Made by a program: the position numbers and the translations under genes | The notes under the pieces: generated by a model | Told to the model about the DNA's origin: nothing | The model's input: the letters and a program-made list of their open reading frames with translations, nothing else | Databases searched by the model: none | Assembly: GCF_030384885.1 (NCBI RefSeq) | Contig: NZ_CP128613.1 | Length of the DNA stretch: 64,000 bases | Source: Escherichia coli | GTDB taxonomy: Bacteria > Pseudomonadota > Gammaproteobacteria > Enterobacterales > Enterobacteriaceae | Strand: one strand, 5' to 3' | In this document: positions 13,150 to 60,009 of the stretch, piece after piece | How the letters are laid out: each line of letters begins with the position of its first letter | Numbering within the stretch: position 1 is the first letter of the stretch

Positions 13150-14097
<948 letters not shown>

Positions 14098-21404: not shown

Positions 21405-22829
21405 TTACTGCATTAACAGATAGATGGTGCTGTCGCCGCGCTGAATATTCAGTGCCAGCACAGACGGTTTGCTGTCGAGAACTTTACGCAGTTCAGCGAT
21501 GTTTTTCACTGCCTGCTGGTTCGCACCAATAATCACATCACCTTTCTTCAGGCCGATCTGCGCAGCCGGAGTGCCCGTTTTCACGTTGTTCACCACCACG
21601 CCCTGATCTTTGCCTTTGTTGCTCATCTCAGCGCCTTCAATGCCGTTGAAGATGGTGCTGGAATCAACCTGATTCTGGCTGCTCTGCTGCAGTTCCAGGT
21701 TCACGTTAACCTGCTTCCCGTCGCGCAGTAAGCCCAGGGTCAGTTTGCTGCCTACCGGCATAGTGCCCACCTGAGCACGCAGTGCGGCAAAGCTGCTGAT
21801 TGGCTTACCGTTCAGTGAGGTGATCACATCACCCGCTTTAATGCCCGCTTTCGCGGCGGAAGAGTTCGGCAGAACCTGGCTTACAAAAGCACCGCGCTGG
21901 GCGTCAACTTTCATCGCTTTCGCCAGATCGGAGTTCAGCTCAGTGCCCATAATACCCAGCTCACCACGTTTCACCTGGCCGTATTCCACCATCTGCGAGG
22001 TCAGGTTTTTCACCATGTTGCTCGGGATAGCAAAACCGATACCGATGTTTCCGCCGTCCGGTGCGAGGATCGCGGTGTTGATACCAATCAGTTCGCCGTT
22101 CAGGTTAACCAGCGCGCCACCGGAGTTACCACGGTTGATCGCAGCATCGGTCTGGATGAAGTTTTCGTAGTTTTCAGCGTTCAGGCCGCTACGTCCCAGC
22201 GCAGAGACAATCCCGGAAGTTACCGTCTCGCCCAGACCAAACGGGTTACCAATTGCTACGGTGTAATCACCCACGCGCAGTGCATCAGAATCCGCCATCT
22301 TAATTGCGGTCAGGTTTTTCGGATTCTGGATCTGGATCAGCGCGATATCAGAGCGCGGATCTTTGCCAACCATCTTCGCCTCGAACTTACGACCATCGCT
22401 CAGCTGGACTTTAATCACCGTCGCGTTATCAACAACGTGGTTGTTGGTGACGACATAGCCTTTATCGGCATCAATGATGACGCCGGAACCCAGCGCCATG
22501 AATTTCTGTTGCTGGCCGCCGCCATTACCGCCCTGGCCCCCCTGGCAGAACGGAGAGCTCTGGAACGGAGAACCTTCCTGGCAGAACGGAGAATCATCAC
22601 CGAAGAACTGCTGGAAATTACGCGGCATACGCGGCGTATTAACGGTTGTGCTACCTTCTACGTTAATGCTGACCACTGAAGGCATCACCTTTTCGAGCAT
22701 CGGTGCAAGGCTTGGCATCTGCTGGGCTGTCGTTGCTGAAGAAGTCTCAGCCGCCGTTGCAGAGAGCGGAGATAACGCCAAACCTAAACTCAGAGCCAGT
22801 GCACTCAGTGCTAATGTGGTTTTTTTCAT
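21405..22829 (-). CDS. degP: Periplasmic serine endoprotease DegP (HtrA)
   Basis: Track ORF 474 aa; signal peptide, trypsin-like GNSGGAL active-site motif, two PDZ domains. Confidence 0.95.
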   Translation of the reverse strand: MKKTTLALSALALSLGLALSPLSATAAETSSATTAQQMPSLAPMLEKVMPSVVSINVEGSTTVNTPRMPRNFQQFFGDDSPFCQEGSPFQSSPFCQGGQGGNGGGQQQKFMALGSGVIIDADKGYVVTNNHVVDNATVIKVQLSDGRKFEAKMVGKDPRSDIALIQIQNPKNLTAIKMADSDALRVGDYTVAIGNPFGLGETVTSGIVSALGRSGLNAENYENFIQTDAAINRGNSGGALVNLNGELIGINTAILAPDGGNIGIGFAIPSNMVKNLTSQMVEYGQVKRGELGIMGTELNSDLAKAMKVDAQRGAFVSQVLPNSSAAKAGIKAGDVITSLNGKPISSFAALRAQVGTMPVGSKLTLGLLRDGKQVNVNLELQQSSQNQVDSSTIFNGIEGAEMSNKGKDQGVVVNNVKTGTPAAQIGLKKGDVIIGANQQAVKNIAELRKVLDSKPSVLALNIQRGDSTIYLLMQ

Positions 22830-22871
22830 GTATTTCAGTCTCGATTAACAGATAACGCAAAATTGCTGTGT

Positions 22872-39991: not shown

Positions 39992-40708
39992 TTATAGTTT
40001 TTGTTGACGTTTCCCTGAACTTGAACCATAGTCAGTTATCACCGACCACTCAACAACACTACCTGCTCCAGCAGGAAGACTAAACCGATTCTCAGAAAAT
40101 GGACCAACCATCATCGACAATGCACCAGGTTCAGATTTCTCCTCGACAGCAGTAATGCTCTTACCTGATACTGTTAGCTCATTAAATGAAATATAAAAAG
40201 GCGTTGGATTTTTTACTATGAGCCTCCCTGATTCTTTATGAAATTTAAGTTTTTCCCATGCAGTTAAAGCGTCGCTATTACTCAAAGAATCTGGTCGCCA
40301 AAATAACTTAAGCCGTACTTTCATTGCAAATTGCAAGGTGTTTTTATCTTTTAGCTCCTCCGGCATAGCAGAAATAGATTTTATATTTGCTAAAAACAAA
40401 CTTTCTCTATCTTGAGGAAGGCTTTCTTTATTTCCTGTAAATACAACATGGAGTAGTGTTTGACGGTTTTCCTCAAGTTTATAAACGGGAGGCGTGATGA
40501 GAAAAGGGGCTTTAGAACCATCAATATTACTCACCCAACTTTGCACGAGATAACGAGCATGTGCGTCTTTATTCTTTAATGTAATTTGAACTTCATTTTG
40601 ATTTGAAGGATAGACAATGCGTGTACCACCAAGTACAACACCTGCTTGTGCTTGTATTGCAGTGAGAAGAAATGTAAATCCTAAAAAGAATCGATAAGAT
40701 ACTGACAT
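39992..40708 (-). CDS. Periplasmic fimbrial chaperone (PapD/FimC family) of accessory operon
   Basis: Track ORF 238 aa; signal peptide; GGTRIVYP... N-terminal motif typical of PapD-like chaperones. Confidence 0.85.
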   Translation of the reverse strand: MSVSYRFFLGFTFLLTAIQAQAGVVLGGTRIVYPSNQNEVQITLKNKDAHARYLVQSWVSNIDGSKAPFLITPPVYKLEENRQTLLHVVFTGNKESLPQDRESLFLANIKSISAMPEELKDKNTLQFAMKVRLKLFWRPDSLSNSDALTAWEKLKFHKESGRLIVKNPTPFYISFNELTVSGKSITAVEEKSEPGALSMMVGPFSENRFSLPAGAGSVVEWSVITDYGSSSGKRQQKL

Positions 40709-40753
40709 AAATAACCCTCCATGGTCAGATAGTCCTTCAATACACTATAAATA

Positions 40754-41320
40754 TTACCGATAGAAGACTTCAAACGTCGCAGATGAAGCATATTTCCCCG
40801 CAGTTGGCGGGTTATTACCAATCTGGATGACATTAGCAGTATAATTAAATATCGTGGGATTTACATCGCCAGCATTATCAACATCAGTGGATTCATCAGG
40901 GACAGAACCATCAAATTTTACACTACTTGTTCCGCCATTTTTATTTGTTACCGTAATACCCACATTTGTTGCACTACCCGCAGCAGTTTCGCTATTTTCA
41001 AGGCGAAGAGAACCAGTATCCGTTGTGGTTCCAGAAAATGTCAGGTTTAGTTTTGTAACCAATGGATCACACTTTAGCAACTCAATCTTAAAATCTTTTG
41101 AAGTCCCAATCGTACCATCCCCGGTATAGTCCGCAGGGTAAGTATCTGCAAAAGTCACCGTGCCTGTCGTACTACTAGAATCATTGACATTGATTTCGCA
41201 GGTATCAGCAACAATTTTACCATTGAAGTTAACAATCCCAGTATCTACAGCAAATACACTCGTACTTACTGCTGCCAGGAAAGTTCCTGACGCAAATAGA
41301 GAAAGCAATTTTTTATTCAT
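40754..41320 (-). CDS. Major fimbrial subunit (pilin) of accessory operon
   Basis: Track ORF 188 aa; signal peptide MNKKLLSLFASGTFLAAVSTSVFA; conserved Cys pair (DTCEIN ... LLKCDP); C-terminal SATFEVFYR; first gene of operon. Confidence 0.8.
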   Translation of the reverse strand: MNKKLLSLFASGTFLAAVSTSVFAVDTGIVNFNGKIVADTCEINVNDSSSTTGTVTFADTYPADYTGDGTIGTSKDFKIELLKCDPLVTKLNLTFSGTTTDTGSLRLENSETAAGSATNVGITVTNKNGGTSSVKFDGSVPDESTDVDNAGDVNPTIFNYTANVIQIGNNPPTAGKYASSATFEVFYR

Positions 41321-41653
41321 AAAAATCCCTTAATTATGAGTCAATAAAGCATGATTCCATTCCAGAGAGGCTGGGCAGGACTTGATAAATATTGATAATA
41401 TAAATATATGCAAATAATAAAATTATTTTAGATTAGAGCAAAAAACACATTACATGTCTATACGACATATAATAAAAAGGTTACAACCATCTGAAATTTA
41501 AAGATTTGTTCTTATTCTCAAAAATATAAAATCATAAATTAAAAATATAAATTCACCCCATTAGATTCATTAAATAAATACTTATTATATTTATCTATAT
41601 AACGTCATAGTAATCTATTACGCTCTCCGCATCAGCGGAGAGCTATTACGATA
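41321..41653 (-). promoter_or_regulatory. AT-rich control region upstream of accessory fimbrial operon (promoter expected here), including a perfect stem-loop next to the mrcB stop
   Basis: 333-bp strongly AT-rich non-coding stretch with many A/T tracts; 10-bp inverted repeat CGCTCTCCGC-atca-GCGGAGAGCG near 41623..41646; no promoter elements could be assigned with confidence. Confidence 0.4.
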
Positions 41654-44188
41654 TTAATTACTACCAAACATATCCTTGATCCAACCTGCTACGCCGTCAC
41701 TGTCTTTCTGCTCTTGCTGATCAGGTTGCTGTTGCGGCTGTTGCTGCGGCTGAGAAGACTGATCAAACGGATTGCCTGACGGTTGCTGCTGCATCTCACT
41801 CTGCTGGCACAGCGATTGCGGATCGCTGGTCCAGACCGGTAAGACACGCATGCCACCGCTGCAGACAAAGTTGCCGTCGTAGTCCACGCCCATATCAGCA
41901 ATGTCTTCTGGCGGAACAAGATTCAGCGGTGTTGGCGTCTGGTTAGCCAGATAACGCTGATAAATCGACATTGCCCCACTGGCACCATACAGTTTGGTCG
42001 GCTGGTTGTTATCACGGCCTACCCAGGTGATGGTCACCGTGCTGCCGTCAATGCCCGCAAACCAGGTATCCACGTTGTTGTTGGTAGTCCCGGTTTTGCC
42101 CGCCAGATGCAGGTTCGGGTATTTCGCCCCAAGCTGACGACCCGTACCGCGTTGTACCACCTGCTGCATGGTCCATAGTGTCAGATACGCCGCCTGCGCC
42201 GGAACCGCGCGTTCCGCCTGCGGGAAGCTCTGATACAGCACCTTGCCATCTTCCGCAATTACCGAACGCAGCGCAGAAAGTGGTGCACGGTTACCGCCGC
42301 TGGCGATGGTCTGGAAAGCCTGCGCCACTTCGATTGGCGTTAAGTTCAACGCCCCCAGCAGCATTGCCGGAACCGGATGCAGCTGATCTTTCGGTACGCC
42401 CAGTTTAATCCAGGTATCCGTAACCGCAGGCAGCCCCAGCGCCATCCCCAGATTTACCGTCGGCACGTTCATCGAACGAGTCAACGCATCCACCAGCATC
42501 ACTCTGCCACTTTCGCTATAACGACGATCATCGTTCTGCGGTGACCAGACCTGACCGTTCGGCTGACGCAGCGCGATTGGCGCATCGGCAATCCACGTGT
42601 TCAGGCGATAGATTCTCGGCTGGCTTAAGGCCGTCAGATAAGTCGCTGGTTTTGCAAGGGAACCAATCGAACGACGCGCCTGCATCGCACGGTTGTAACC
42701 TGCAAACTGCGGCTCAGAACCACCAACCATCGCGCGAACTTCACCGCTAAAGCGGTCGACAACCACGATTGCCGTTTCCAGATCGCTCAGCTTTCGCTGT
42801 TTCTTCAGCGCCGGAATACCCTCCACGGCGGCTTTTTCTGCCGCGTCCTGGGCCACCGAGTCAAAGGTAGTGAAGATCTTCACGCCGGAGAGATCTTTCA
42901 CTTTATCGCCCAGTTTCGCCTGTAGCTCCTGACGCACCAGTTGCATAAAGGCTGGCTGTGGAGAGATTACCCCACCACGCGGCTGAACCCCCAGCGGACG
43001 CGCGCTGAGCATTTCATACAGTTCGCCGTCGATAATCTGTTGCTGTTGCAGCAGACGCAGTACCAGATTACGTCGCTCCAGCGCCAGTTTCGGGTTACGC
43101 CACGGATTGTAGATGGACGCCCCTTTCACCATACCCACCAACAGCGCCTGCTGGTCGAGGCTCAATTCTTCTACCGGGCGACCAAAGTAATACAAGCTCG
43201 CCAGCGGGAAGCCGCGGATTTCGTTGTCGCCGCTCTGACCGAGATACACCTCGTTCATATACAGCTCAAGAATACGGTCTTTGCTGTAACGCGCGTCCAT
43301 GATCAGCGCCATGTAGGCTTCGTTCGCTTTACGCCAGTAAGAACGCTCGCTGGAGAGGAACAGGTTTTTCACCAGCTGTTGCGTCAGCGTACTCGCCCCC
43401 TGCACCGTGCGTCCGGCGGTCAGGTTTGCCAACACCGCACGTCCGATGGAGTAGAGACTGATCCCATCATGCTCGTAAAAATGACGGTCTTCTGTTGCCA
43501 GCAAAGTATCCACCAGCAGATCCGGGAAACCACTGCGCGGCACAAACAGACGTTGCTCACCGTTTGGCGAAGAGATCATGGTGATCAGACGCGGATCAAG
43601 ACGGAAGAAACCAAACTGACGGTTGTTCTCCATATTGACGATCGTCGCCAGATGATCGCCATCAAAGGTCAGACGCGCACGCACCTGTCCTTCTTTGCTG
43701 TCCGGGAAATCAAACGGACGACGGATCATCTCAATGCTGTTGGCCTGCACGGTAAATTCGCCAGGGCGCGTCATTTTCGACACCTGACGATACTGGGTCG
43801 CCTCCAGCAGCTTCACCATCTCGTTTTTGCTGATGGTCATGTCTGGCTCAAGGTTGACCATTCGGCCATAAACAGCCGCAGGCAATTGCCAAACTTTGCC
43901 ATCAATACGGCTACGAATTTTTTGATCGAGATAAACACCGTAAATGGCGATCAGCACGGCAAAAACGATAGCCAGTTTTAGCAGCAGCCATAGCCAGCCG
44001 CGTTTGCCACGAGGCTTACGCCCTTTGCCTTTGCCCTTACCTTTGCGCGGCATCGGTTCTTCATCCTCATAGTCATCATAATCGTCGTAATCATCGTCAT
44101 CTTCGTAACGACGACGGCTTACCTTTTGTTTGACCGGACGCGTCGGTTTCCCTTTGCGTCCAATTGGCTCGCGGTCATTCCCGGCCAT
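41654..44188 (-). CDS. mrcB: Penicillin-binding protein 1B (bifunctional glycosyltransferase/transpeptidase)
   Basis: Track ORF 41654..44203; start placed at [22 protein letters not shown] (844 aa); acidic [15 protein letters not shown] tract. Confidence 0.95.
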
Positions 44189-44281
44189 GCTTTTTCTCCG
44201 CAATATTCAGGCGCAAAAGCCCGATTTTCTGTTCTTCTGTAACAAGACAGAAGAAGATATCTCTCAAATTTACTTTGGTCT

Positions 44282-46711
44282 TCATGAATACTTTTTCGTC
44301 CGTCGCGTCGGTGCGGTATTTGCCGGATCATCCGGCCAGACGTGTTTGGGATAACGCCCTTTCATCTCTTTTTGCACCTCGCGATACGCTCCTTTCCAGA
44401 AGGCGCTCAAATCTCGTGTGATTTGCAGCGGCCTTTGGGCAGGAGAAAGCAACTCCAGCACCAGCGGCACGCGCCCCTGGGCGATCGTCGGATTGGTGGC
44501 CTCGCCAAACATCTCCTGCATTCTCACCGCCAGCGCGGGCGGGTTATCTTCATGGTAACGAATGGCGATCCGGCTTCCCGTCGGCACAGTGTAATGCGCA
44601 GGCAATTCACTATCCAGACGTTGCTGCATCCCCCAATCAAGTAATCCGCGTAGCGCCTGATAAATATCGAGTGATTTCAGGCCGCGTAGCGAATGTACGC
44701 CTGTCATATGCGGCAGGAGCCACGTTTCCAGCGTCGCCAACAAACTTTCATCATCAACCGCTGGCCAGTCATATTCCGGCAACCACTTTGCGGCGCATAA
44801 CAAACGCAAGCGTAGCTGTTCCGCTTCCGCCGTCCAGTTGAGCACGCTTAAACCTTTATCACGAATGCCGTTAAGCATCGCCTGATGCAACTCGTCTTCC
44901 GAGGGTTTCGCCAGCGGCTGCACTTTCACCGTCAAATGACCGATTTGCAGCCGACGCCACGCTTTCAGCGTACCTTGCGCGTCATCCCACTCCACAGTGT
45001 CAGACTGCTGTACCAACTGCGGACAGCGTTGTACTAATTCATCGATATCGACCGGTAGCGCCAGTAAAATCCGCGCATCCGGCGAGGCGCTGCCCTGCAA
45101 TAATAACGGTGCGATCAACCATTCGTGGCGGCTGAGCGCATCATCGGCATCGAGCATTGCCCCCATGCCGTTTGCCAGTTGATAGCGCCCCTCTTGCCCA
45201 CGGCGGCGAGCGATGCGATCGGCAAACGCTCCGGCAAGTAACGGTGCGATAAGCGAACTGTCTGCCTCACCGCCGCGTACGTTTAAGCGCTTTAACAGTT
45301 GCTGGCTACGTTGCTGCCAGGCAGGTTGATTGCGCGAAAACGCCACGCCCAGATCGATATTGCCCATCCGTGGTGGCTCTTCGAGAATAGCGGCAATTTT
45401 TGCAGCGGTAGCAGCTTCGTCGTCGCTCTTTGCGCTCACCAGCATTGCCGCTAAACGCGGATCGTTACCCAGCGTCGCCATTTTCTGCCCTTTCGTGCTT
45501 AGCCGTTCACCGTCCATCGCCCCCAGCATCCGCAACAGGCGTTTCGCGGCCTGTAAATTCACGGCTGGCGGTTGATCCAGCCAGCTCATCTGCGTCGGAT
45601 CGCTGCATCCCCATTGCAGTAATTCCATCAGCAAACCGGAGAGATCGCTTTGTAATATTTCTGGTTCACTTTGCGCGGAGGCGCGTTCTGCTTGTTCTTT
45701 GGCGATTAAATGTAAACAGATCCCCGGCTCCAGACGTCCGGCACGCCCGGCGCGTTGCGTCATTGATGCCTGGCTAATGCGTTGGGTAATCAGCCGCGTT
45801 AGCCCCGTGCGCGGATCAAAGCGCGCCACACGTTCCTGAGCACAATCCACCACCAGACGAATACCTTCGATGGTTAAACTGGTTTCAGCAATATTGGTTG
45901 CCAGCACCACTTTGCGCATCCCTTCTGGTGCCGGAAGGATCGCTTTTCGCTGATCGTTCAGCGACAACGCGCCATACAGCGGGCAGAGCAACACATCACT
46001 ACCGATGCGCGAAGCCAGTTGTTCCTGAACGCGCTGAATTTCTCCGACACCAGGTAAAAATAACAGTAATGAGCCGCTTTCCTGATGCAGCAATTCGGCG
46101 GTGGCAACCGCCACGGCTTCATCAAAACGCTGATGAGCGAGCAGCGGTAAATATCGGCGTTCAACCGGAAATGAGCGCCCTTCTGAGATGACGACGGGCG
46201 CTTCTGGCAGCATCTGCTGCAAGCGGTCATTGTCCAGCGTAGCCGACATAATCAGTAGTTTAAGGTCATCACGCAGACCTTGTTGCACATCGAGTAACAG
46301 CGCCAACGCCAGATCCGCCTGCAAGCTGCGCTCATGAAACTCATCGAGGATCACCAATCCAACGCCGCTCAGTTCAGGGTCACGCTGGATCATGCGCGTC
46401 AACACGCCTTCGGTAACTACTTCCAGGCGAGTATTTGCCCCGACACAGTTTTGCGCGCGCATCCGGTAGCCTACCGTATCACCTGTTTTTTCGTTAAGCA
46501 GTTCCGCCAGTCGTTGCGCAACGTTACGCGCCGCCAGGCGACGCGGCTCCAGCAGGATAATTTTTCCGTTAATGCCGGGATGCGCCAGCAGTTGCAGCGG
46601 CAGCCAGGTTGATTTCCCGGCCCCGGTCGGCGCACTTAATAACACCTGCGGTGCACCATCGAGGGCAGCAAGTAACTCAGGTAAGACGGCGGCAACGGGC
46701 AACGACGACAC
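44282..46711 (-). CDS. hrpB: ATP-dependent RNA helicase HrpB (DEAH-box); probable GTG start
   Basis: Track ORF 44282..46756; GAGKST Walker A and DEFH box; start placed at in-frame GTG giving MSSLPVAAVLPELL (809 aa as I recall). Confidence 0.88.
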   Translation of the reverse strand: MSSLPVAAVLPELLAALDGAPQVLLSAPTGAGKSTWLPLQLLAHPGINGKIILLEPRRLAARNVAQRLAELLNEKTGDTVGYRMRAQNCVGANTRLEVVTEGVLTRMIQRDPELSGVGLVILDEFHERSLQADLALALLLDVQQGLRDDLKLLIMSATLDNDRLQQMLPEAPVVISEGRSFPVERRYLPLLAHQRFDEAVAVATAELLHQESGSLLLFLPGVGEIQRVQEQLASRIGSDVLLCPLYGALSLNDQRKAILPAPEGMRKVVLATNIAETSLTIEGIRLVVDCAQERVARFDPRTGLTRLITQRISQASMTQRAGRAGRLEPGICLHLIAKEQAERASAQSEPEILQSDLSGLLMELLQWGCSDPTQMSWLDQPPAVNLQAAKRLLRMLGAMDGERLSTKGQKMATLGNDPRLAAMLVSAKSDDEAATAAKIAAILEEPPRMGNIDLGVAFSRNQPAWQQRSQQLLKRLNVRGGEADSSLIAPLLAGAFADRIARRRGQEGRYQLANGMGAMLDADDALSRHEWLIAPLLLQGSASPDARILLALPVDIDELVQRCPQLVQQSDTVEWDDAQGTLKAWRRLQIGHLTVKVQPLAKPSEDELHQAMLNGIRDKGLSVLNWTAEAEQLRLRLLCAAKWLPEYDWPAVDDESLLATLETWLLPHMTGVHSLRGLKSLDIYQALRGLLDWGMQQRLDSELPAHYTVPTGSRIAIRYHEDNPPALAVRMQEMFGEATNPTIAQGRVPLVLELLSPAQRPLQITRDLSAFWKGAYREVQKEMKGRYPKHVWPDDPANTAPTRRTKKYS

Positions 46712-46784
46712 AAAACGCTCCAGAGGGTTAACATTCTTCGCGCCACATTGTAGCATCGCGGTAATGCATAACCGAGTACCTCAC

Positions 46785-48034
<1,250 letters not shown>

Positions 48035-48211
48035 TAGAGTAAGTAACTGGTTAATTTACATTCTGGTCGCGTGCGCAAATACGCTTTTCCTCACACAGTT
48101 GTCAAGTGTTACGTTTAGATAATTGCTATCCGGAAAAGCTTCTGCTATTTATAGCGGCCTCATTTTTCCCCCGAACATGGGGATCGATAGTGCGTGTTAA
48201 GGAGAAGCAAC

Positions 48212-48667
48212 ATGCAAGAAGGGCAAAACCGTAAAACATCGTCCCTGAGTATTCTCGCCATCGCTGGGGTGGAGCCATATCAGGAGAAGCCGGGCGAAGA
48301 GTATATGAACGAAGCCCAGCTGGCGCACTTCCGTCGTATTCTGGAAGCATGGCGTAATCAACTCAGGGATGAAGTCGATCGCACCGTTACACATATGCAG
48401 GATGAAGCAGCCAACTTCCCGGATCCGGTAGACCGTGCAGCCCAGGAAGAAGAGTTCAGCCTCGAACTGCGTAACCGCGATCGCGAGCGTAAGCTGATCA
48501 AAAAGATCGAGAAAACGCTGAAAAAAGTGGAAGACGAAGATTTCGGCTACTGCGAATCTTGCGGCGTTGAAATTGGTATTCGTCGTCTGGAAGCGCGCCC
48601 GACAGCCGATCTGTGCATCGACTGCAAAACGCTGGCTGAAATTCGCGAAAAACAGATGGCTGGCTAA
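48212..48667 (+). CDS. dksA: RNA polymerase-binding transcription factor DksA
   Basis: Track ORF 48194..48667; start placed at ATG preceded by AAGGAGAAG, giving [26 protein letters not shown] (151 aa); C4 zinc finger [25 protein letters not shown]. Confidence 0.95.
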
Positions 48668-48695
48668 TTACAGCCGTTCCATCACGTTTACCACA

Positions 48696-48723
48696 GGCGG
48701 GAAATGCTCCCGCCTTATTTTTT
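48696..48723 (+). terminator. Intrinsic terminator downstream of dksA, overlapping the gluQ start
   Basis: GGCGGGA-aatgc-TCCCGCC perfect 7-bp stem followed by TTATTTTTTG, read directly. Confidence 0.65.
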
Positions 48724-49630
48724 GTTCAACGAGATGACAGACACACACTATATTGGTCGCTTCGCCCCCTCTCCTTCTGGCGAGCTTCATTTTGGCTCTC
48801 TGATTGCCGCGCTTGGAAGCTTTCTACAGGCTCGCGCCCGGCAAGGTCGCTGGCTTGTTCGCATTGAAGATATCGATCCGCCTCGTGAAGTTCCCGGTGC
48901 CGCAGAGACCATCCTGCGCCAGCTGGAACATTACGGTCTACACTGGGACGGCGATGTTCTCTGGCAATCGCAACGTCACGACGCCTATCGCGAAGCACTC
49001 GCATGGTTACATGAGCAAGGGTTAAGTTATTACTGCACCTGCACGCGCGCACGTATTCAAAGCATTGGCGGTATTTACGACGGTCATTGCCGGGAGTTGC
49101 ATCATGGGCCAGAAAACGCTGCTGTACGTATTCGCCAGCAGCATCCGGTCACCCAGTTTACTGACCAGCTGCGCGGCATTATTCATGCCGACCAAAAACT
49201 GGCGCGGGAAGATTTTATTATTCATCGCCGTGATGGTTTGTTTGCCTATAACCTGGCGGTGGTGGTGGATGATCACTTCCAGGGCGTGAGCGAAATTGTC
49301 CGCGGGGCAGATTTGATCGAACCCACGGTGCGCCAAATCTCGCTGTACCAGCTTTTTGGCTGGCAGGTGCCAGATTACATTCATTTGCCACTGGCACTTA
49401 ATCCACAAGGCGCTAAACTTTCCAAGCAGAATCATGCGCCTGCGTTGCCGAAAGGCGATCCACGCCCGGTACTAATCGCGGCACTTCAATTTCTGGGTCA
49501 ACAGGCAGAAGCACACTGGCAGGATTTCAGCGTCGAGCAAATTCTCCAGTCAGCCGTCACAAACTGGACGCTGACTACCATTCCTGAGTCGGCAATTGTA
49601 AATTCAACATTCTCAAATGCCTCATGCTGA
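48704..49630 (+). CDS. gluQ: Glutamyl-Q tRNA(Asp) synthetase (truncated GluRS paralogue)
   Basis: Track ORF 308 aa; [17 protein letters not shown] class-I aminoacyl-tRNA synthetase HIGH-type motif; start may instead be the ATG at 48734 (MTDTHYIGR). Confidence 0.85.
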
Positions 49631-49689
49631 GCTATGATTAGCCGCTATTTTTTTGTCCTGAATGATGTTTGACACTACCGAGGTGTATT

Positions 49690-51087
49690 ATTTTTACCCG
49701 AGTCGCTAATTTTTGCCGCAAGGTGCTAAGCCGCGAGGAGAGCGAAGCTGAACAGGCAGTCGCCCGTCCACAGGTGACGGTGATCCCGCGTGAGCAACAT
49801 GCTATCTCTCGCAAAGATATCAGTGAAAATGCCCTGAAGGTAATGTACAGGCTCAATAAAGCGGGATACGAAGCCTGGCTGGTTGGCGGCGGCGTGCGCG
49901 ACCTGTTACTTGGCAAAAAGCCGAAAGATTTTGACGTGACCACTAACGCCACGCCAGAGCAAGTGCGCAAACTGTTCCGTAACTGCCGCCTGGTAGGTCG
50001 CCGTTTCCGTCTTGCTCATGTCATGTTTGGCCCAGAGATTATCGAAGTCGCAACCTTCCGTGGACACCACGAAGGTAACGTCAGCGACCGTACGACCTCC
50101 CAACGCGGGCAAAACGGCATGTTGCTGCGCGACAACATTTTCGGTTCCATCGAAGAAGACGCCCAGCGCCGCGATTTCACCATCAATAGCCTGTATTACA
50201 GCGTGGCGGATTTTACGGTCCGCGATTACGTTGGTGGCATGAAGGATCTGAAAGACGGCGTTATCCGTCTGATTGGTAACCCGGAAACGCGCTACCGTGA
50301 AGATCCGGTACGTATGCTGCGCGCGGTTCGTTTTGCCGCCAAATTGGACATGCGCATCAGCCCGGAAACCGCAGAACCGATCCCACGCCTGGCAACCTTG
50401 CTAAACGATATTCCTCCGGCGCGTTTGTTTGAAGAATCTCTGAAACTGTTGCAAGCGGGCTACGGTTACGAAACTTATAAACTGCTGTGTGAATACCATC
50501 TGTTCCAGCCGCTGTTCCCGACCATTACCCGCTACTTTACGGAAAATGGTGACAGTCCAATGGAGCGGATCATTGAGCAGGTGCTGAAGAATACCGATAC
50601 GCGTATCCATAACGATATGCGCGTGAACCCGGCGTTCCTGTTTGCCGCCATGTTCTGGTACCCACTGCTGGAGACAGCACAGAAGATCGCCCAGGAAAGT
50701 GGCCTGACCTATCACGACGCTTTCGCGCTGGCAATGAACGATGTGTTAGACGAAGCCTGCCGTTCACTGGCGATCCCGAAACGTCTGACGACGTTAACCC
50801 GCGATATCTGGCAGTTGCAGTTGCGCATGTCCCGCCGTCAGGGTAAACGCGCATGGAAATTACTCGAACATCCGAAGTTCCGCGCCGCTTATGACCTGCT
50901 GGCACTGCGTGCTGAAGTAGAACGCAACGCCGAGCTACAACGTCTGGCGAAATGGTGGGGTGAGTTCCAGGTTTCTGCGCCGCCAGACCAAAAAGGGATG
51001 CTTAACGAACTGGATGAAGAACCGTCACCGCGTCGTCGTACTCGTCGCCCGCGCAGACGTGCGCCGCGCCGTGAGGGCACCGCATGA
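49690..51087 (+). CDS. pcnB: Poly(A) polymerase I; start assigned to an AUU codon
   Basis: Track ORF 49669..51087; E. coli pcnB is known to initiate at AUU, so start placed at the ATT codon preceding [12 protein letters not shown] (465 aa); [17 protein letters not shown] nucleotidyltransferase motif. Confidence 0.85.
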
Positions 51088-51563
51088 CAGTGGCGTATAT
51101 TGCCATCGGCAGCAATCTGGCCTCTCCGCTGGAGCAGGTCAATGCTGCCCTGAAGGCAATAGATGACATTCCTGAAAGCCGCATTCTTGCCGTTTCTTCG
51201 TTTTACCGCACCCCACCGCTGGGGCCGCAAGATCAACCCGATTACTTAAACGCAGCCGTGGCGCTGGAAACCTCTCTTACAGCAGAAGAGCTCCTCAACC
51301 ACACACAGCGTATTGAGCTGCAGCAAGGTCGCGTCCGCAAAGCTGAACGCTGGGGACCGCGCACGCTCGATCTTGATATCATGTTGTTTGGTAATGAAAC
51401 CATTAATACCGAACGACTCACCGTCCCGCATTACGATATGAAGAATCGCGGCTTTATGCTGTGGCCGCTGTTTGAAATCGCGCCGAAGCTGGTCTTTCCT
51501 GATGGGACAGGATTAGACAACTTATTACGAATAAATAAGTTCGCTGAATTAAATAAATGGTAA
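51084..51563 (+). CDS. folK: 6-hydroxymethyl-7,8-dihydropterin pyrophosphokinase
   Basis: Track ORF 159 aa [26 protein letters not shown]; overlaps pcnB stop. Confidence 0.95.
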
Positions 51564-51886
51564 GGCAATAGTTTTGCAAATATAAATAAATTCCGAAAAT
51601 AGCTTTCACGCAATTACAATAATCCCTCCTCTAAGTTATAACCGTAATAATATAATATTCACCCCACTCAACAGCCCCACCCATATACACCATTATCATC
51701 ACATTAGATATTTAGTTTTACTTAAAAATGAATTAAGTGGATATTTAATTTTAAATATGCACAATATCCCCCCTAATGATGAACAGATGTTACATTCGGT
51801 AAATCCAAGCATCCATCATTAACAAACCATTCACCTTTTCTTTATCGAGACTTCCTGCTTGAGGAGGTCTGATTAAAGTTAAACTC
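51564..51886 (+). promoter_or_regulatory. AT-rich upstream region of the yad fimbrial operon
   Basis: About 320 bp non-coding, very AT-rich with A/T tracts, immediately 5' of yadN; typical of silenced fimbrial promoters; no specific elements assigned. Confidence 0.35.
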
Positions 51887-51910
51887 ATGGAATATGATTC
51901 AAGGATTTTT

Positions 51911-52495
51911 ATGTCTAAAAAATTAGGTTTTGCGCTCTCTGGTCTTATGCTGGCAATGGTTGCAGGTTCCGCTTCTGCTGATATGGACGGTGGTCAGTTA
52001 AATATCAGTGGTCTGGTTGTTGATAATACCTGTGAAACCCGCGTAGACGGCGGTAACAAAGATGGCCTGATCCTGCTGCAAACTGCAACCGTTGGAGAAA
52101 TCTCTGAGGGTGTGCTGGACACTACCGTTGGTGCTAAAGCTAAACCATTCAGCATTACTGTTGACTGTAGTAAAGCTAATCCGGCACCAGGCAGCACAGC
52201 AAAAATGACTTTCGGTTCAGTCTTCTTTGGTAACAGTAAAGGAACGCTGAATAATGATATGTCAATTAATACGCCATCGGACGGTGTTAATATTGCTCTG
52301 CACAATATCGAAGGTTCTGCTATCAAACAGGTTAAAATCAACAACCCTGGCGATATCTATTCCAAAGCACTGGATGCAACTTCTAAATCCGCAACTTATG
52401 ACTTTAAAGCATCTTATGTTCGTGCAGATGCGAGCCAACCAGGCACTGCTGGTTATGTGAAAACTAACACTGCATATACCGTTACTTATCAGTAA
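51911..52495 (+). CDS. yadN: Fimbrial major subunit YadN
   Basis: Track ORF 51887..52495; start placed at [24 protein letters not shown]-terminal ...TAYTVTYQ. Confidence 0.85.
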
Positions 52496-52591
52496 GCATT
52501 TCCATCCATATTCATGAATTGAATACATACAGGGAATAATATTGATATTTCATACTACTCCCTGTTTTTTTAACTCTGCCAGGAATGGTTT

Positions 52592-53332
52592 ATGTTTTTC
52601 AACACTAAACATACAGCAGCATTATGCTTCGCAACCTGTGTAGCTTTTAGCTCATCAGCTATAGCAGATATCGTAATTTCCGGTACACGCGTAATCTATA
52701 AAAGCGACCAAAAAAGTGTCAGCGTTCGTCTGGAAAATAAAGGCAATAACCCATTACTTGTTCAAAGTTGGCTGGATACCGGCGATGACAATGCTGAGCC
52801 TGGCAGTATTACCGTCCCCTTTACTGCGACTCCGCCCGTATCACGCATTGATGCAAAACGCGGCCAAACTATCAAACTGATGTACACCGCCAGTAGCGTC
52901 CTGCCAAAAGATAGAGAAAGTGTGTTCTGGTTTAACGTACTGGAAGTTCCTCCAAAACCAGATGCCGCAACAGCTACAAATCAAAGCCTGCTGCAGTTGG
53001 CATTTCGTACCCGTATCAAATTGTTTTATCGCCCTGAAGGGTTAAAGGGCAATCCGTCTGACGCGCCGTTAGCACTTAAATGGTCATGGGCAACTGCGGG
53101 AGGCCAAACAGCTTTGCAAGTAACAAACCCTACGCCTTATTACGTCTCATTTAGCAGTGGTGATTTAGAAACCAGCAGCAAGCGCTATCCACTCGACGTA
53201 AAAATGATTGCGCCATTCAGTAACGATGTCATCAAAGTGAACGGTATGAGTGGCAAATCAAGCTCTGCAAAAGTTCATTTCTACGCCATTAATGATTTTG
53301 GCGGAGCCATAGAAGGCAATGCAACTCTGTAA
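52592..53332 (+). CDS. yadV: Fimbrial periplasmic chaperone (EcpD/YadV)
   Basis: Track ORF 246 aa; PapD-like (ISGTRVIYKSDQKSVSVRLEN). Confidence 0.85.
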   Translation: MFFNTKHTAALCFATCVAFSSSAIADIVISGTRVIYKSDQKSVSVRLENKGNNPLLVQSWLDTGDDNAEPGSITVPFTATPPVSRIDAKRGQTIKLMYTASSVLPKDRESVFWFNVLEVPPKPDAATATNQSLLQLAFRTRIKLFYRPEGLKGNPSDAPLALKWSWATAGGQTALQVTNPTPYYVSFSSGDLETSSKRYPLDVKMIAPFSNDVIKVNGMSGKSSSAKVHFYAINDFGGAIEGNATL

Positions 53333-53367
53333 TCAGGCAAGGGATATTACGCAGCAGGAAGCGAAAC

Positions 53368-55965
53368 GTGCAAAAAATAACAATAATTCATCCTCATAAC
53401 CTCACGCAGATCGCTACGCTTTGTGCGCTGCTTTATAGTTCCTTTAGCATAAGTGCTGAACACGTTGAATATGACCATACCTTCCTGATGGGGCGTGATG
53501 CTTCAAATATCGACCTTAGTCGGTACAGTGAAGGTAACCCTACGCTACCCGGTATTTACGACGTAAATGTTTATGTTAATGATCAACCCGTCATTAACCA
53601 AAGTATCCCTTTTGTCGTTATTGACGGGAAGAAAAATGCCCAGGCTTGTATCACCCAAAAGAATATATTGCAGTTTCACATTACCCAACCAGATATTGAT
53701 AGTGAAAATGCGGTACTACTCGAGCGAGATGAAGAGCTCGGTGATTGCCTCAATCTAACCGAAATTATCCCGCAATCATCTGTGCGTTATGATGTGAATG
53801 ATCAACGACTGGATATTGATGTCCCACAGGCATGGGTCATGAAAAATTACCAAAACTATGTTGATCCGTCATTATGGGAAAATGGTATTAATGCTGCCAT
53901 GCTTTCATATAACGTTAATGGTTATCACAGTGAAAGCCCTGGCAGAAAAAATGACAGTATTTATGCCTCATTTAATGGTGGTGTGAATTTAGGCGCATGG
54001 CGAATGCGCGCTTCAGGTAACTACAACTGGATGAACGATTCTGGTAGCGATTACAACTTTCAGAATCGGTATCTGCAGCGCGATATTGCATCACTACGTT
54101 CGCAATTAATTATTGGTGAATCCTATACCACCGGGGAAACTTTTGATTCCGTCAGCATTCGTGGCGTTCGCTTATACAGCGACAGTCGGATGCTTCCCCC
54201 TGCATTAGCCAGTTTTGCTCCGGTTATTCATGGTGTCGCCAACACTAACGCAAAAGTGACTATCACTCAGAGCGGTTATAAGATCTATGAAACAACAGTA
54301 CCACCAGGCGCATTTACTATTGATGATCTCAGTCCATCAGGCTATGGCAGCGACCTCATTGTCACAATTGAAGAGGCTGATGGCTCAAAGCGGACTTTCT
54401 CTCAGCCATTTTCATCGGTAGTGCAAATGCTACGACCTGGCGTTGGTCGCTGGGATATTAGTGGTGGTCAGGTATTAAAGGACGATATTCAGGATGAACC
54501 TAATTTATTTCAGGCCAGCTACTACTATGGCCTAAACAACTACCTGACCGCGTATACAGGTATTCAGCTCACCGATAATAACTATACTGCCGGATTACTG
54601 GGACTTGGTTTAAATACGTCCCTGGGTGCTTTTTCTTTCGATGTCACTCACTCCAATGTCCGCATCCCTGAAGATAAAACATACCAGGGGCAGAGCTATC
54701 GTTTATCGTGGAACAAATTATTCGAAGATACCAGTACGTCGCTAAATATCGCGGCCTACCGCTATTCAACGCAGAATTATCTTGGTCTTAATGACGCTTT
54801 AACACTCATTGATGAAGTGAAGCATCCAGAGCAAGAGCTTGAACCGCAATCCATGCGGAATTACTCGCGCATGAAAAATCAGGTTACGGTCAGTATTAAC
54901 CAACCGCTGAAATTTGAGAAAAAAGATTACGGCTCCTTTTATCTTTCAGGAAGCTGGTCCGACTATTGGGCTTCCGGCCAAAATCAAAGCAATTATTCCA
55001 TTGGCTACAGCAATAGTGCCTCCTGGGGCAGCTATAGCATTAGTGCTCAGCGTTCCTGGAATGAAGATGGTGAAACCGATGATAGTATCTATCTCAGTTT
55101 CACCATTCCAATTGAAAAACTCCTGGGGACAGAACACCGTGATTCAGGTTTCCAGAATATTGACACTCAGCTAAACAGCGATTTTAAAGGTAATAATCAA
55201 CTAAATATCAGTAGCAGTGGTTACAACGATAACAATCGCATCAGTTACAGCGTGAATACTGGCTATACGATGAATAAATCCACCGATGATTTAAGTTATA
55301 TCGGGGGTTATGCCAGTTATGAATCCCCATGGGGAACATTGGCCGGTTCGGTTTCCGCAAGTAGTGATAATAGCCGTCAGTTTTCGCTCAATACCGACGG
55401 GGGTTTTGTGCTACACAGTGGAGGCCTCACATTCAGTAACGACAGCTTTAGTGATTCCGACACTCTGGCAGTGGTTCAGGCCCCCGGAGCAAAAGGCGCC
55501 CGTATCAACTACGGTAATAGCACTGTAGATCGCTGGGGCTATGGCGTAACCAGCGCCCTGTCGCCATATCATGAAAACCGCATCGCTCTGGATATTAACG
55601 ATCTTGAGAACGATGTTGAATTGAAAAGTACCAGTACTGTTGCCGTACCGCGTCAGGGCTCTGTCATCTTCGCTGGTTTTGAAACGGTACAGGGGCAATC
55701 AGCGATTATGAATATTAAACGTAGCGACGGTCGTAACATTCCATTTGCTGCGGATATTTATGATGAGCAAGGCAATAATATTGGAAATGTCGGCCAGGGC
55801 GGGCAAGCTTTTGTACGTGGTATCAGTCAACAGGGTAATATCCAGATTAAATGGCTCGAAGCAGGTAAGCCCGTAAATTGCCTGGCCCATTATCAACAAA
55901 ACGCAGAAGCAGAAAAGATCGCACAAACGATTATCATCAATGGAATTAATTGTCAGATTCAGTAA
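53368..55965 (+). CDS. htrE: Fimbrial usher HtrE
   Basis: Track ORF 865 aa; usher-family size and composition; operon position. Confidence 0.9.
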   Translation: MQKITIIHPHNLTQIATLCALLYSSFSISAEHVEYDHTFLMGRDASNIDLSRYSEGNPTLPGIYDVNVYVNDQPVINQSIPFVVIDGKKNAQACITQKNILQFHITQPDIDSENAVLLERDEELGDCLNLTEIIPQSSVRYDVNDQRLDIDVPQAWVMKNYQNYVDPSLWENGINAAMLSYNVNGYHSESPGRKNDSIYASFNGGVNLGAWRMRASGNYNWMNDSGSDYNFQNRYLQRDIASLRSQLIIGESYTTGETFDSVSIRGVRLYSDSRMLPPALASFAPVIHGVANTNAKVTITQSGYKIYETTVPPGAFTIDDLSPSGYGSDLIVTIEEADGSKRTFSQPFSSVVQMLRPGVGRWDISGGQVLKDDIQDEPNLFQASYYYGLNNYLTAYTGIQLTDNNYTAGLLGLGLNTSLGAFSFDVTHSNVRIPEDKTYQGQSYRLSWNKLFEDTSTSLNIAAYRYSTQNYLGLNDALTLIDEVKHPEQELEPQSMRNYSRMKNQVTVSINQPLKFEKKDYGSFYLSGSWSDYWASGQNQSNYSIGYSNSASWGSYSISAQRSWNEDGETDDSIYLSFTIPIEKLLGTEHRDSGFQNIDTQLNSDFKGNNQLNISSSGYNDNNRISYSVNTGYTMNKSTDDLSYIGGYASYESPWGTLAGSVSASSDNSRQFSLNTDGGFVLHSGGLTFSNDSFSDSDTLAVVQAPGAKGARINYGNSTVDRWGYGVTSALSPYHENRIALDINDLENDVELKSTSTVAVPRQGSVIFAGFETVQGQSAIMNIKRSDGRNIPFAADIYDEQGNNIGNVGQGGQAFVRGISQQGNIQIKWLEAGKPVNCLAHYQQNAEAEKIAQTIIINGINCQIQ

Positions 55966-55980
55966 CCACAAGGGCTCCAC

Positions 55981-56556
55981 ATGATAAAAATGACACCATA
56001 TAAATTGACAATACTGATGGGTATATTATTTTCACCTTCAGTATTTGCTACAGATATTAATGTTGATTTCACCGCAACGGTGAAGGCGACAACCTGTAAT
56101 ATTACTCTCACTGCACTGAATGGCTCAAGTGTTACAGATGATGGTAACGATAATTACATACTACGTATACCTAATATGGGGTTGGATAAAATAGTTAATA
56201 AAACAGCCGAAGCCCAGGCAGACTTTAAACTGATCGCCAGTGGTTGTAGCGGTGGCATCAGCTGGATTGATACAACGCTGTCAGGGAATAAGTCTGGCAG
56301 CTCCCCAAAATTGATAGCGCCATTATCATCAGACACATCCTCAACAACCAGCTATATTGGTATGGGAATTAAAAAAATAAATACTGATGATTCTACATTT
56401 CTGACCCCTAACAGCGCAGAGAAAATTCGCTGGAGCCTGACAGAAATCAATACAGACGGTCTCTCAATGACCGTTGCATTGCGTGAAACAGGTACAGGTC
56501 AAGGCATACCAGGTAATTTTCGTGCTAAGGCAACTTTTAATTTCACCTATCAATAA
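55981..56556 (+). CDS. yadM: Fimbrial minor subunit YadM
   Basis: Track ORF 191 aa, signal peptide, C-terminal ...ATFNFTYQ; exact start uncertain. Confidence 0.8.
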   Translation: MIKMTPYKLTILMGILFSPSVFATDINVDFTATVKATTCNITLTALNGSSVTDDGNDNYILRIPNMGLDKIVNKTAEAQADFKLIASGCSGGISWIDTTLSGNKSGSSPKLIAPLSSDTSSTTSYIGMGIKKINTDDSTFLTPNSAEKIRWSLTEINTDGLSMTVALRETGTGQGIPGNFRAKATFNFTYQ

Positions 56557-56570
56557 CAAGGATGACAATA

Positions 56571-57176
56571 ATGATGTATAAAAAATTACGTTATGGATTA
56601 TCCGTAAGTATGATTCTTGCTGCATCCCAGTTAGTCGCGCCATCCTATGCGGCTACCGACAGTATCGGTCTGACAGTCGTTACCACTGTTGAGACTGGGA
56701 CTTGCGATGCACAACTGGTTAATGATAGCAATCAACAAATTTCTGCGGTGGATTTTGGCGATGTTTATATTTCTGAAATCGATAAAAAATTAAAAATTAA
56801 GACTTTCAAATTACAGTTTAAAAACTGCGCGGGTATTCCCGGGAAAAAGGCTCTGATAAACCTGACCAAACGCGCAACTTGCGAAGGGACCAGTAATGAC
56901 GGAGCAGGTTTTGCAAATGGTTCTACAGGTACCGGCAAAGCAAGCGCCGTTGTGGTAGAAGTCTGGAACACCACTGTACCTGCAACGGGAAGTGCGGCTC
57001 CATTTAGCTGTGCAGCACCGGCAAATAAAGAGGTAATTATTGCCTCCGCCACAGGTAATAACGTAGTGGACTATCCGATGAGCGCCCGTCTGGTGGTTGA
57101 TAAAGATAAAACTGTCAGCGACGTTACCGCTGGCACATTTTCTGCACCAGCAACATTTACCGTGACTTACAACTAA
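56571..57176 (+). CDS. yadL: Fimbrial minor subunit YadL
   Basis: Track ORF 56562..57176; start at MMYKKLRYGLSV assumed; C-terminal ...ATFTVTYN. Confidence 0.78.
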   Translation: MMYKKLRYGLSVSMILAASQLVAPSYAATDSIGLTVVTTVETGTCDAQLVNDSNQQISAVDFGDVYISEIDKKLKIKTFKLQFKNCAGIPGKKALINLTKRATCEGTSNDGAGFANGSTGTGKASAVVVEVWNTTVPATGSAAPFSCAAPANKEVIIASATGNNVVDYPMSARLVVDKDKTVSDVTAGTFSAPATFTVTYN

Positions 57177-57201
57177 CTGGTCGCCATATCAGGTACTTAC
57201 T

Positions 57202-57798
57202 ATGCATCCCACCCAACGTAAAATGACGAAGAAAACAGGTTTATTTCTGTCGTTAATATTATCAATGATACACCCCGTCATGGCGGGAATGGATATTGAT
57301 ATGACGGCTAATGTCAAAAATAGCACCTGCAAAAGCGGAATTAGCAATCAAGGTAATATCGATCTTGGCGTCGTCGGTGTGGGATATTTTGCCGGTAATA
57401 CCTCTGCTGAAGACCATCAACCTAGCGGAAAAGAATTTACCATCACGGTGACAGACTGTGCATTTCAGGGAACAGGAGATGTACTCAATCAGTTGCATAT
57501 TGAATTCCGCCCTCTTAGCGGTGTAATGGCAACAGGCTCTAGGCAAATATTTAATAATGAGAACGTCTCGGGGGCCAGTAATGTTGGCGTCGTTATCTTT
57601 TCTATCCAGGACCCGGCAAACACCTTCAATGTTCTGAATACAGCTGGCATTTCTCGTTCAATTTATCCGGTGATGTCATCAGAGATGAATAACTCATCCT
57701 GGAAATTTTATACCCGAATGCAAAAAGTTAACCCAGCACTTAACATTACATCCGGTCAAGTCAAAAGTACTGTACTGGTCGACGTCTACTATGAGTAA
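57202..57798 (+). CDS. yadK: Fimbrial minor subunit YadK
   Basis: Track ORF 198 aa; C-terminal ...VLVDVYYE. Confidence 0.8.
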   Translation: MHPTQRKMTKKTGLFLSLILSMIHPVMAGMDIDMTANVKNSTCKSGISNQGNIDLGVVGVGYFAGNTSAEDHQPSGKEFTITVTDCAFQGTGDVLNQLHIEFRPLSGVMATGSRQIFNNENVSGASNVGVVIFSIQDPANTFNVLNTAGISRSIYPVMSSEMNNSSWKFYTRMQKVNPALNITSGQVKSTVLVDVYYE

Positions 57799-57822
57799 CC
57801 TCTAATATAAGAAGATAATAAT

Positions 57823-59103
57823 ATGTTAACGCTAAAAATCGTATATAAAACGCAAGCATTTTTAAAGTGCTGCATTCTGCTCTTATTATCTCTTTCTAGT
57901 ATTTCTTTCGCGGCTAACACTGGTTTTGTTGTAGGAAATCCCCCCCCATCGCCCACTAGTCTGGCTGGGCCCTCAGGTAATGGAAAAGCAACTTTCAGAT
58001 ACAACACTATCGCAAACAATTTAGTTTTTTATAAACCTACAGGTTCAGGCATTAACCAAACGGGAGTAAAACTATACTGGGCACAATTAGATAGTGCACT
58101 TGGTGGTGTAGGAAATGGAGTTATTTATTGTAACACCAGTAATAATGCCAGTGGTGGACCGATGACACTTACAAATGCAATGGTTGACTCTGGTTTCACT
58201 TACAATGGTCATAAATTATTTAAAACATCTGTTCCAGGTCTCTATTACACATTGTCAATTTTCAACGTGTGGTCAGCTTGGGTAAAATCTAATATCAGCG
58301 CAAATGGTCTTTATATTGGAGATGCTGCTAAGCAATACTTTTCATTCTATGTAGCTGACCCGGACCTTCAGAGAAACGGATGTAACAAGGCAAACTCAAT
58401 GAGTAAGTATTGGGCAATTGGTGGTGTAATGCAGAGCCTCACTGTCGAATTTTATACTGACTCCTCTTTCGATCCTGTACAAAACCAAAAGGTTCAATTG
58501 TTACGTACTAGCGACTATCTTTATGCTTTTCATGCTGAAGGCGCTGGCGTTGGCATTAATGAACATAGTCATTTTCTTTTTATAGATTTTGATCTAACTA
58601 ATATCACAATTACATTACCTACATGCTTCACCTCCGTTTTGAGTGGTTCGGCTGTCAGTGGCTCAACAGTAAAAATGGGTGAATATACTTCCCAACAAAT
58701 AAAAAATGGGGCAACCCCAGTTCCTTTTGATATTAACTTACAAAACTGCATCCGTGTTCGTAATATTGAAACAAAACTCGTCTCCACAAAAATCGGCACA
58801 GAAAACAAGAAACTTCTGGGTAATACGCTCACAGGTAATGATGCGGCAAAAGGAGTTGGTGTATTAATTGAAGGGTTAGCCACCAACAAAAGTGTAAAAA
58901 TGATACTGGAACCCAATGTTTCAACATCTGTTTATAAAGATTACGAAACGGAAAATGATACCACTGATGGGATTTACCCAAATCAGGGTAACGGTACTTC
59001 ACAACCTCTTCATTTCCAGGCGACCTTACAACAAGACGGAAATATTCCTATAGAGTCAGGGGAGTTAAAAGCCACCAGTACTTTTCAGGTGACCTATCCC
59101 TGA
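57823..59103 (+). CDS. yadC: Fimbrial tip adhesin YadC (two-domain)
   Basis: Track ORF 426 aa; last gene of the yad operon; C-terminal ...[11 protein letters not shown]-terminal segment appears to differ from the K-12 allele as I recall it. Confidence 0.78.
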
Positions 59104-59214
59104 TAGCAACGTTGCACCGCCTGATAATGGCGGTGCAACAATAGAGAAATCATTGCCCCCACAAATGTGACTGATAAAATGCAAACAGCACAACATCATT
59201 TATCAGGACACGTT

Positions 59215-60009
59215 ATGAAACCGACCACCATTGCTTCATTGCAGAAATGCAAACAGGACAAAAAACGCTTCGCGACAATAACCGCTTACGACTACAGCTT
59301 CGCTAAATTGTTTGCCGAAGAAGGACTTAACGTGATGTTGGTTGGCGATTCGCTGGGCATGACTGTTCAGGGGCACGACTCCACACTCCCGGTAACCGTT
59401 CAAGATATCGCCTACCACACTGCTGCCGTACGTCGTGGCGCACCAAATTGCCTGCTGCTGGCCGACCTGCCGTTTATGGCGTATTCCACCCCGGAACAGG
59501 CCTTTGAAAATGCCGCCACAGTAATGCGTGCCGGAGCCAATATGGTCAAAATTGAAGGCGGCGCATGGTTGGTTGAGACGGTACGAATGCTGACTGAACG
59601 CGCAGTTCCGGTGTGTGGTCATTTAGGTTTAACCCCACAGTCAGTGAATATATTTGGCGGCTACAAAGTACAAGGGCGTGGCGATGAAGCGGGCGATCAA
59701 CTGCTCAGCGATGCGTTAGCCTTAGAAGCCGCTGGTGCACAGTTGCTGGTGCTGGAATGCGTGCCGGTTGAACTGGCGAAACGCATTACCGAAGCGCTGG
59801 CGATTCCGGTAATCGGTATTGGCGCGGGCAACGTCACCGACGGGCAAATCCTCGTGATGCACGACGCGTTCGGTATTACCGGCGGCCATATCCCTAAATT
59901 TGCAAAAAATTTCCTTGCTGAAGCGGGCGACATCCGCGCAGCAGTGCGTCAGTATATAGCTGAAGTGGAGTCCGGTGTTTATCCGGGCGAAGAACACAGT
60001 TTCCATTAA
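59215..60009 (+). CDS. panB: 3-methyl-2-oxobutanoate hydroxymethyltransferase
   Basis: Track ORF 59167..60009; start placed at [27 protein letters not shown] (264 aa). Confidence 0.93.

Follow-up and report, generated by a model that had tools for sequence, protein, structure and literature searches.

The legacy gluQ start codon of Escherichia coli lies in the loop of the dksA terminator, and translation begins at the next in-frame ATG

The junction between dksA and gluQ has been studied by experiment in the near-identical locus of Shigella flexneri (Caballero et al. 2012, BMC Microbiol 12:226; PMC3542578). RT-PCR detected a dksA-gluQ co-transcript in S. flexneri, and a lacZ fusion without the dksA promoters (pVCDT) stayed at baseline, indicating that gluQ has no separate promoter (PMC3542578). 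A fusion without the intergenic region (pVCPD) gave about 10-fold more lacZ than pVCPDT, and mutation of the stem raised lacZ more than 2-fold (PMC3542578). The smaller effect of the stem mutant compared with the 10-fold effect of the deletion implies that something beyond the stem contributes, or that the mutant stem was only partly disrupted. The authors placed the first AUG of gluQ in the hairpin and saw no obvious Shine-Dalgarno sequence at the second AUG (PMC3542578). Edman sequencing returned the N-terminus TDTQYIGRFAP, which puts the start at the second AUG and the length at 298 aa; the protein sequenced had been over-expressed from a T7/pET construct with the Shigella sequence and was not at native level (PMC3542578). 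They further reported that E. fergusonii keeps the hairpin and lacks the methionine, that a terminator occupies the same position in Pseudomonas, and that no riboswitch was found (PMC3542578). Our literature search on the gluQ start, Term-seq and a sigma-E promoter uncovered nothing beyond this paper and the reviews citing it.

We analyzed the same junction in a 64,000-nt stretch of E. coli DNA (contig NZ_CP128613.1, assembly GCF_030384885.1), called the window hereafter, in which the gene order of the region is sfsA-dksA-gluQ-pcnB. Over positions 48150-49700 E. coli 2013C-4282 matches the window at every base (100% identity), and the remaining 5423 complete E. coli genomes with a match reach 94-96%. 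As 2013C-4282 is the only one of the 5424 complete genomes with at least 99% identity over dksA-gluQ, the window comes from a divergent E. coli lineage. An entry from E. coli TW10509 has the same sequence as the window's 308-aa form of GluQ. In the segment from the hairpin to the gluQ start, a single base separates the window (AACGAG) from typical E. coli (AAAGAG), and 4889 of 5422 complete E. coli genomes carry the typical 45-nt segment with 100% identity.

The dksA coding sequence (48212..48667, plus strand, 151 aa) was assigned from the RefSeq annotation of the identical strain and from the NCBIfam equivalog NF008045, which it matches over its full length at 346 bits against a cutoff of 289. 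Its start follows a strong Shine-Dalgarno sequence, AAGGAG, with an anti-Shine-Dalgarno duplex of -9.2 kcal/mol. The gluQ gene (gluQRS, yadB) occupies 48734..49630 on the plus strand (298 aa, without a Shine-Dalgarno sequence), as placed by the RefSeq start, PDB entries, NCBIfam profiles and conservation. Judged from its sequence, the product is the tRNA glutamyl-Q(34) synthetase GluQRS (YadB), since it scores above the equivalog cutoffs (NF004312, 620 bits against 453; NF004314, 404 against 256; TIGR03838, 380 against 277) and is nearly identical to the characterized protein. PDB entries 1NZJ and 4A91 match it with E = 6e-201, their residues 1-298 corresponding to residues 11-308 of the long open reading frame. 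The 298 residues comprise the GluRS catalytic domain only, without an anticodon-binding domain; GluRS chains of 468-492 aa align with it solely over their first 250-300 residues. The motif ELHFGS is the HXGS variant of the HIGH motif, a signature of GluQ-RS that has been described (PMC3542578).

Downstream of gluQ, RefSeq annotates pcnB (49690-51087, plus strand) with ATT at 49690 as its first codon and a GAGG at 49680-49683 ahead of it. This ATT is the AUU start already known for poly(A) polymerase I. The list of open reading frames shows for pcnB only a frame opening with TTG at 49669. Two adjacent genes, gluQ and pcnB, both carry weak initiation signals.

The dksA stop codon TAA lies at 48665-48667, and a hairpin begins 28 nt beyond it on the same strand (48695..48715). 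Its stem pairs GGCGGGA (48696-48702) with TCCCGCC (48708-48714), and the A48695-T48715 pair extends it to 8 bp, giving a 5' arm AGGCGGGA (48695-48702), a 3' arm TCCCGCCT (48708-48715) and a loop AATGC (48703-48707). A T-tract, TATTTTTT, follows on the plus strand at 48716-48723, with seven T among its eight bases, as read from the sequence and the terminator scan; together with the last base of the stem it reads TTATTTTTT (48715-48723). The scan called the hairpin with 8 pairs, 6 of them G-C, a loop of 5 and the tail TATTTTTTGT, and listed it first among 17 terminator-like sites in 40000-59999. The shuffle expectation for the same interval is 20.6 sites. As the number of sites is not above that of shuffled sequence, a match in the scan is not by itself proof of a real hairpin. 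The hairpin is nevertheless beyond chance, because it is conserved in place in 75 of the best 80 Enterobacteriaceae loci and because of the published S. flexneri mutagenesis. Folded alone it has a free energy of -15.1 kcal/mol. A G+C-rich stem-loop, a T run immediately after the stem and a conserved same-strand place past a stop codon are all found here, and the hairpin with its T-tract (48695-48723) is very probably the Rho-independent terminator of dksA and an attenuator of gluQ. A sequence-only reading of the window had located the hairpin and both in-frame ATG codons (48704 and 48734) correctly and had described the hairpin as directly following dksA; it does lie downstream of the gene, but the 28 nt after the stop codon mean that it does not abut it.

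A second terminator-like site, GGCTGTAATTAGCCAGCC and then ATCTGTTTTT, lies on the minus strand at 48658-48675, across the dksA stop codon. It has 5 pairs and an 8-nt loop and is probably due to chance, as the stem is weak.

To compare species we used the best 80 loci of a contig scan, all of them from Enterobacteriaceae; the best 120 matches of a protein search were from the same family. These 80 loci show no conservation of the spacer ahead of the hairpin. The five without the GGCGGG core (L025, L027, L031, L058 and L068, from Phytobacter, Kosakonia sp. S29, Enterobacteriaceae bacterium UBA3516 and Kosakonia cowanii) have a different hairpin, for example TCGGGGAAAATTTCCCG, and a second G+C-rich hairpin is found further upstream in most of them and also in other Kosakonia loci. 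In three Citrobacter loci (L017, L019 and L022) additional, possibly REP-like sequence separates dksA from the hairpin.

The 80 loci yield 58 distinct Enterobacteriaceae sequences, in which the GGCGGG/CCCGCC core, some 20-60 nt ahead of the gluQ start, is unchanged apart from one pair, varying in one sequence from G-C to G-U, the other five pairs being constant. The loop, flanks and T-tract diverge around it. Outside the core, pair 7 changes from A-U to G-C in 4 sequences and the basal pairs occur as A-U, U-A or C-G. Of 500 shuffles, 4 attained the observed covariation score of 0.090, and so did one slid control (0.095); the score is largely uninformative as proof of structure, since the core stem is invariant. 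The tail holds seven T in eight bases in Escherichia and three to four in eight in Enterobacter and Lelliottia (GTTACCGTTGAT), where the start codon comes 12 nt after the extended stem. The core stem is kept 10-25 nt upstream of a start codon without a Shine-Dalgarno sequence even where the T-tract is poor, which in the Enterobacter-like genera suggests that termination may not be the only role of the stem.

This pattern bears on the only rival explanation with some life left in it, although we consider it unlikely: that the hairpin is a regulated element, in which a protein, a small RNA or the ribosome recognizes the invariant GGCGGGAG/CTCCCGCC and read-through or translation varies with growth phase or stress. 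The invariance of the core among 58 sequences with drifting surroundings, and the retention of the stem before the start despite a poor T-tract, speak for it. So does the stationary-phase increase of the intergenic RT-PCR product, 20-fold on semi-quantitative evidence, for which the authors speculated about a binding factor (PMC3542578). This rise hints at regulated rather than constant read-through. On the other side, a G-C stem is slow to evolve whatever its role, as two mutations are required for each change, and the compensated changes (pair 7 from A-U to G-C, the base of the stem from A-U to U-A) point to selection on structure and not on sequence. No conserved antiterminator pairing was found when folds were compared across species, and a search of 48100-49750 against Rfam gave no match up to E = 10, except for a chance snoRNA match below threshold. 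The narrower proposal, of a sequence-specific protein, small RNA or ribosome site that sets gluQ read-through or translation by growth phase or osmotic stress, we hold to be slightly less likely still; if true, a sequence-specific hairpin would link DksA-controlled physiology to the glutamyl-queuosine modification of tRNA-Asp.

Two structural candidates were rejected. In the minimum-free-energy fold an outer helix, CAUC-A-CGUU (48680-48688) with AACG-A-GAUG (48728-48736), would sequester the ATG at 48734; it is not conserved, as the AAAGAG of typical E. coli breaks the pairing. In typical E. coli this ATG pairs weakly with the U-tract in folding, and in other genera it has other partners or none. 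An attenuator of the riboswitch or antitermination type was discarded on the lack of a conserved alternative structure and of an Rfam match, and on the unconserved upstream spacer. Rfam matches above the gathering score were found elsewhere in the window, namely the CssrA sRNA (12955-13064, minus strand, 137 bits), the t44 RNA (13903-13989, minus strand, 85 bits) and the HtrA 5' UTR thermometer (22824-22869, minus strand, 77 bits).

A promoter of its own for gluQ, for instance one for sigma-24 under envelope or osmotic stress, would mean that read-through is not the sole route to expression. We scanned 48150-48740 and found no sigma-70-like site with at least 8 of 12 hexamer matches. For sigma-E, no site in this interval matched the consensus GGAACTT-N15-17-TCAAA at 9 or more of 12 positions. 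RegulonDB does carry a predicted sigma-24 promoter for gluQ, the gluQ mutant has an osmotic-stress phenotype, and the authors concede that other conditions could reveal a promoter (PMC3542578). With the promoterless pVCDT fusion at baseline (PMC3542578) and both scans of the window negative, a separate promoter appears very improbable. Moreover, the second ATG lies only 18 nt past the stem, so that any gluQ promoter would be upstream of the terminator and read-through would still be required. The sequence-only reading had supposed that expression of gluQ requires the dksA terminator to be read through, and this is borne out by the S. flexneri co-transcript, the baseline of the promoterless fusion and the rise of lacZ on removal or mutation of the hairpin (PMC3542578).

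The question of where translation starts arises from the reading frame. The dksA TAA (48665) is in the frame of gluQ, and no further stop occurs in that frame until gluQ (48665-48736), the hairpin included. Because the whole spacer is open, gene callers can extend gluQ upstream, and because the hairpin holds no stop in this frame, the longest-ORF rule made the loop ATG the annotated start. This codon (48704..48706, plus strand), listed as the first ATG of a 308-codon frame at 48704..49630, is the legacy start of UniProt and GenBank. The next ATG (48734-48736) is in frame 30 nt downstream and opens the protein MTDTHYIGR. Between them, 12 nt upstream of the second ATG, an in-frame TTG (48722..48724, plus strand) is a theoretical start, ruled out by the N-terminal sequence beginning TDTQ (PMC3542578).

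Conservation separates the two ATG codons. An ATG stands at the aligned position of 48734 in 77 of the best 80 species, the other 3 starting within four codons. Among the same loci, only those of E. coli, E. albertii and Escherichia sp. E1V33 have the loop ATG in frame, and the codon is absent from all non-Escherichia genera there. Even within Escherichia it is lost in E. whittamii, whose loop AATAC has ATA in its place, and in Escherichia sp. MOD1-EC7003, where a T-tract one base shorter puts it out of frame, at the head of a 6-codon frame. The ten codons that the 308-aa form adds consist of the 3' arm and the T-tract alone. This extension has no counterpart in the fold, since GluRS paralogues begin only 2-5 residues ahead of the aligned core. 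Position 2 of the NCBIfam profile NF004314 aligns at residue 11 of the long frame, and TIGR03838 begins at residue 16. The profile NF004312 does reach into the 10-residue extension, as a legacy of the long form.

No Shine-Dalgarno sequence is present at 48734: the anti-Shine-Dalgarno duplex over positions -18 to -3 is +1.5 kcal/mol. Its absence is conserved, the corresponding values across the best 80 species having a median of +1.3 and a best of -3.4 kcal/mol. In read-through mRNA the T-tract forms a U-rich leader just ahead of the gluQ start. As S1-dependent initiation occurs on U-rich leaders, this one may support ribosome loading independent of a Shine-Dalgarno sequence.

A reading in which the loop ATG is a genuine start, alone or beside the one at 48734, with a 308-aa isoform, is the least probable of all: the codon is the first ATG of the frame, sits in a loop with an unpaired probability of 1.00, follows a Shine-Dalgarno-like AGGCGGG (anti-Shine-Dalgarno duplex of -6.3 kcal/mol) and is carried by UniProt and many GenBank records, but that AGGCGGG is the 5' arm of the hairpin and is locked in a stem of -15 kcal/mol, the codon is restricted to Escherichia among the genera examined, Edman sequencing gave only TDTQYIGRFAP (PMC3542578), and it is the 298-aa protein that was folded and crystallized (1NZJ, 4A91). 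The functional gluQ start is the ATG at 48734, which encodes the 298-aa protein, and the loop ATG, confined to Escherichia, is an accident of the sequence there and not a functional start, save perhaps at a low level in vivo. This agrees with the earlier suggestion, made from the letters, that the downstream ATG is the effective start. That reading had also proposed N-terminal sequencing as a check; the published result is as it predicted, with a protein that does not begin MLPPYFLF (PMC3542578). Both of its inferences restate what Caballero et al. had reported (PMC3542578), and the feature is real and already known in detail.

The databases are divided on the start. For the identical strain and two further E. 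coli genomes, RefSeq (PGAP) starts gluQRS at 48734, giving 298 aa. UniProt GLUQ_ECOLI and numerous GenBank records retain the 308-aa form, so that the claim of the loop ATG as annotated start holds for these but not for RefSeq. Extended calls are found elsewhere, with 313 aa in Salmonella and 316 and 343 aa in Citrobacter. There the callers settle on upstream ATGs that are not homologous, and the added residues are translated hairpin (MTGGSFPALFFIARS-MTDS, as in the Salmonella-type form of 313 aa, and MKRLQQAGLSPPVHFYIK-MTDS). The 308-aa form and the longer Salmonella and Citrobacter forms are artefacts of one kind. In practice, the 308 aa of GLUQ_ECOLI, of many GenBank records and of NF004312 should be read as 298 aa, and the locus offers a clean example of a start mis-called where a terminator hairpin is open in the downstream frame. 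Past such annotation hygiene the finding has little significance, other than that the arrangement explains a low level of GluQRS that follows dksA transcription.

Taken together, the evidence makes it highly likely that gluQ is expressed through read-through of the dksA terminator, with translation starting at 48734 and the loop ATG accidental. On this account most dksA transcripts would end at the hairpin and T-tract (48695-48723), and gluQ, without a promoter of its own, would be expressed solely from the remaining minority that extend past the terminator. On that mRNA, ribosomes would initiate at 48734, on a U-rich leader without a Shine-Dalgarno sequence, to give the 298-aa GluQRS. The leaky terminator combined with the weak initiation site would keep GluQRS low and tied to dksA transcription. 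The published data being from S. flexneri, the account presumably also holds quantitatively in this E. coli strain.

Compared with described systems, the closest is the dksA/gluQ-rs terminator of S. flexneri and E. coli (PMC3542578), which is the same element: the first AUG is in the loop and the second 27 nt further on, and the window shares with it the 298-aa protein, the lack of a Shine-Dalgarno sequence and the lack of a gluQ promoter. The differences are substitutions at the strain level only, MTDTH instead of MTDTQ and a spacer of AACGAG instead of AAAGAG. The wider class of longest-ORF start mis-annotations is similar in that the 308-aa form runs to the first upstream ATG; it differs in that the gluQ error was corrected by experiment and the short form stands in RefSeq. 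The T1 terminator upstream of dnaG in rpsU-dnaG-rpoD likewise combines a terminator within an operon with a poor ribosome-binding site (ref. 33 in PMC3542578). There, too, the downstream gene is held low relative to the upstream gene, but the genes are not those of dksA-gluQ. To our knowledge, no start codon lies in the dnaG T1 hairpin. In recA-recX, a different locus again, the promoterless downstream gene is expressed only by read-through of a terminator, at about 10% (ref. 34 in PMC3542578), and this level of about a tenth of the upstream gene is comparable to the 10-fold lacZ difference at dksA-gluQ.
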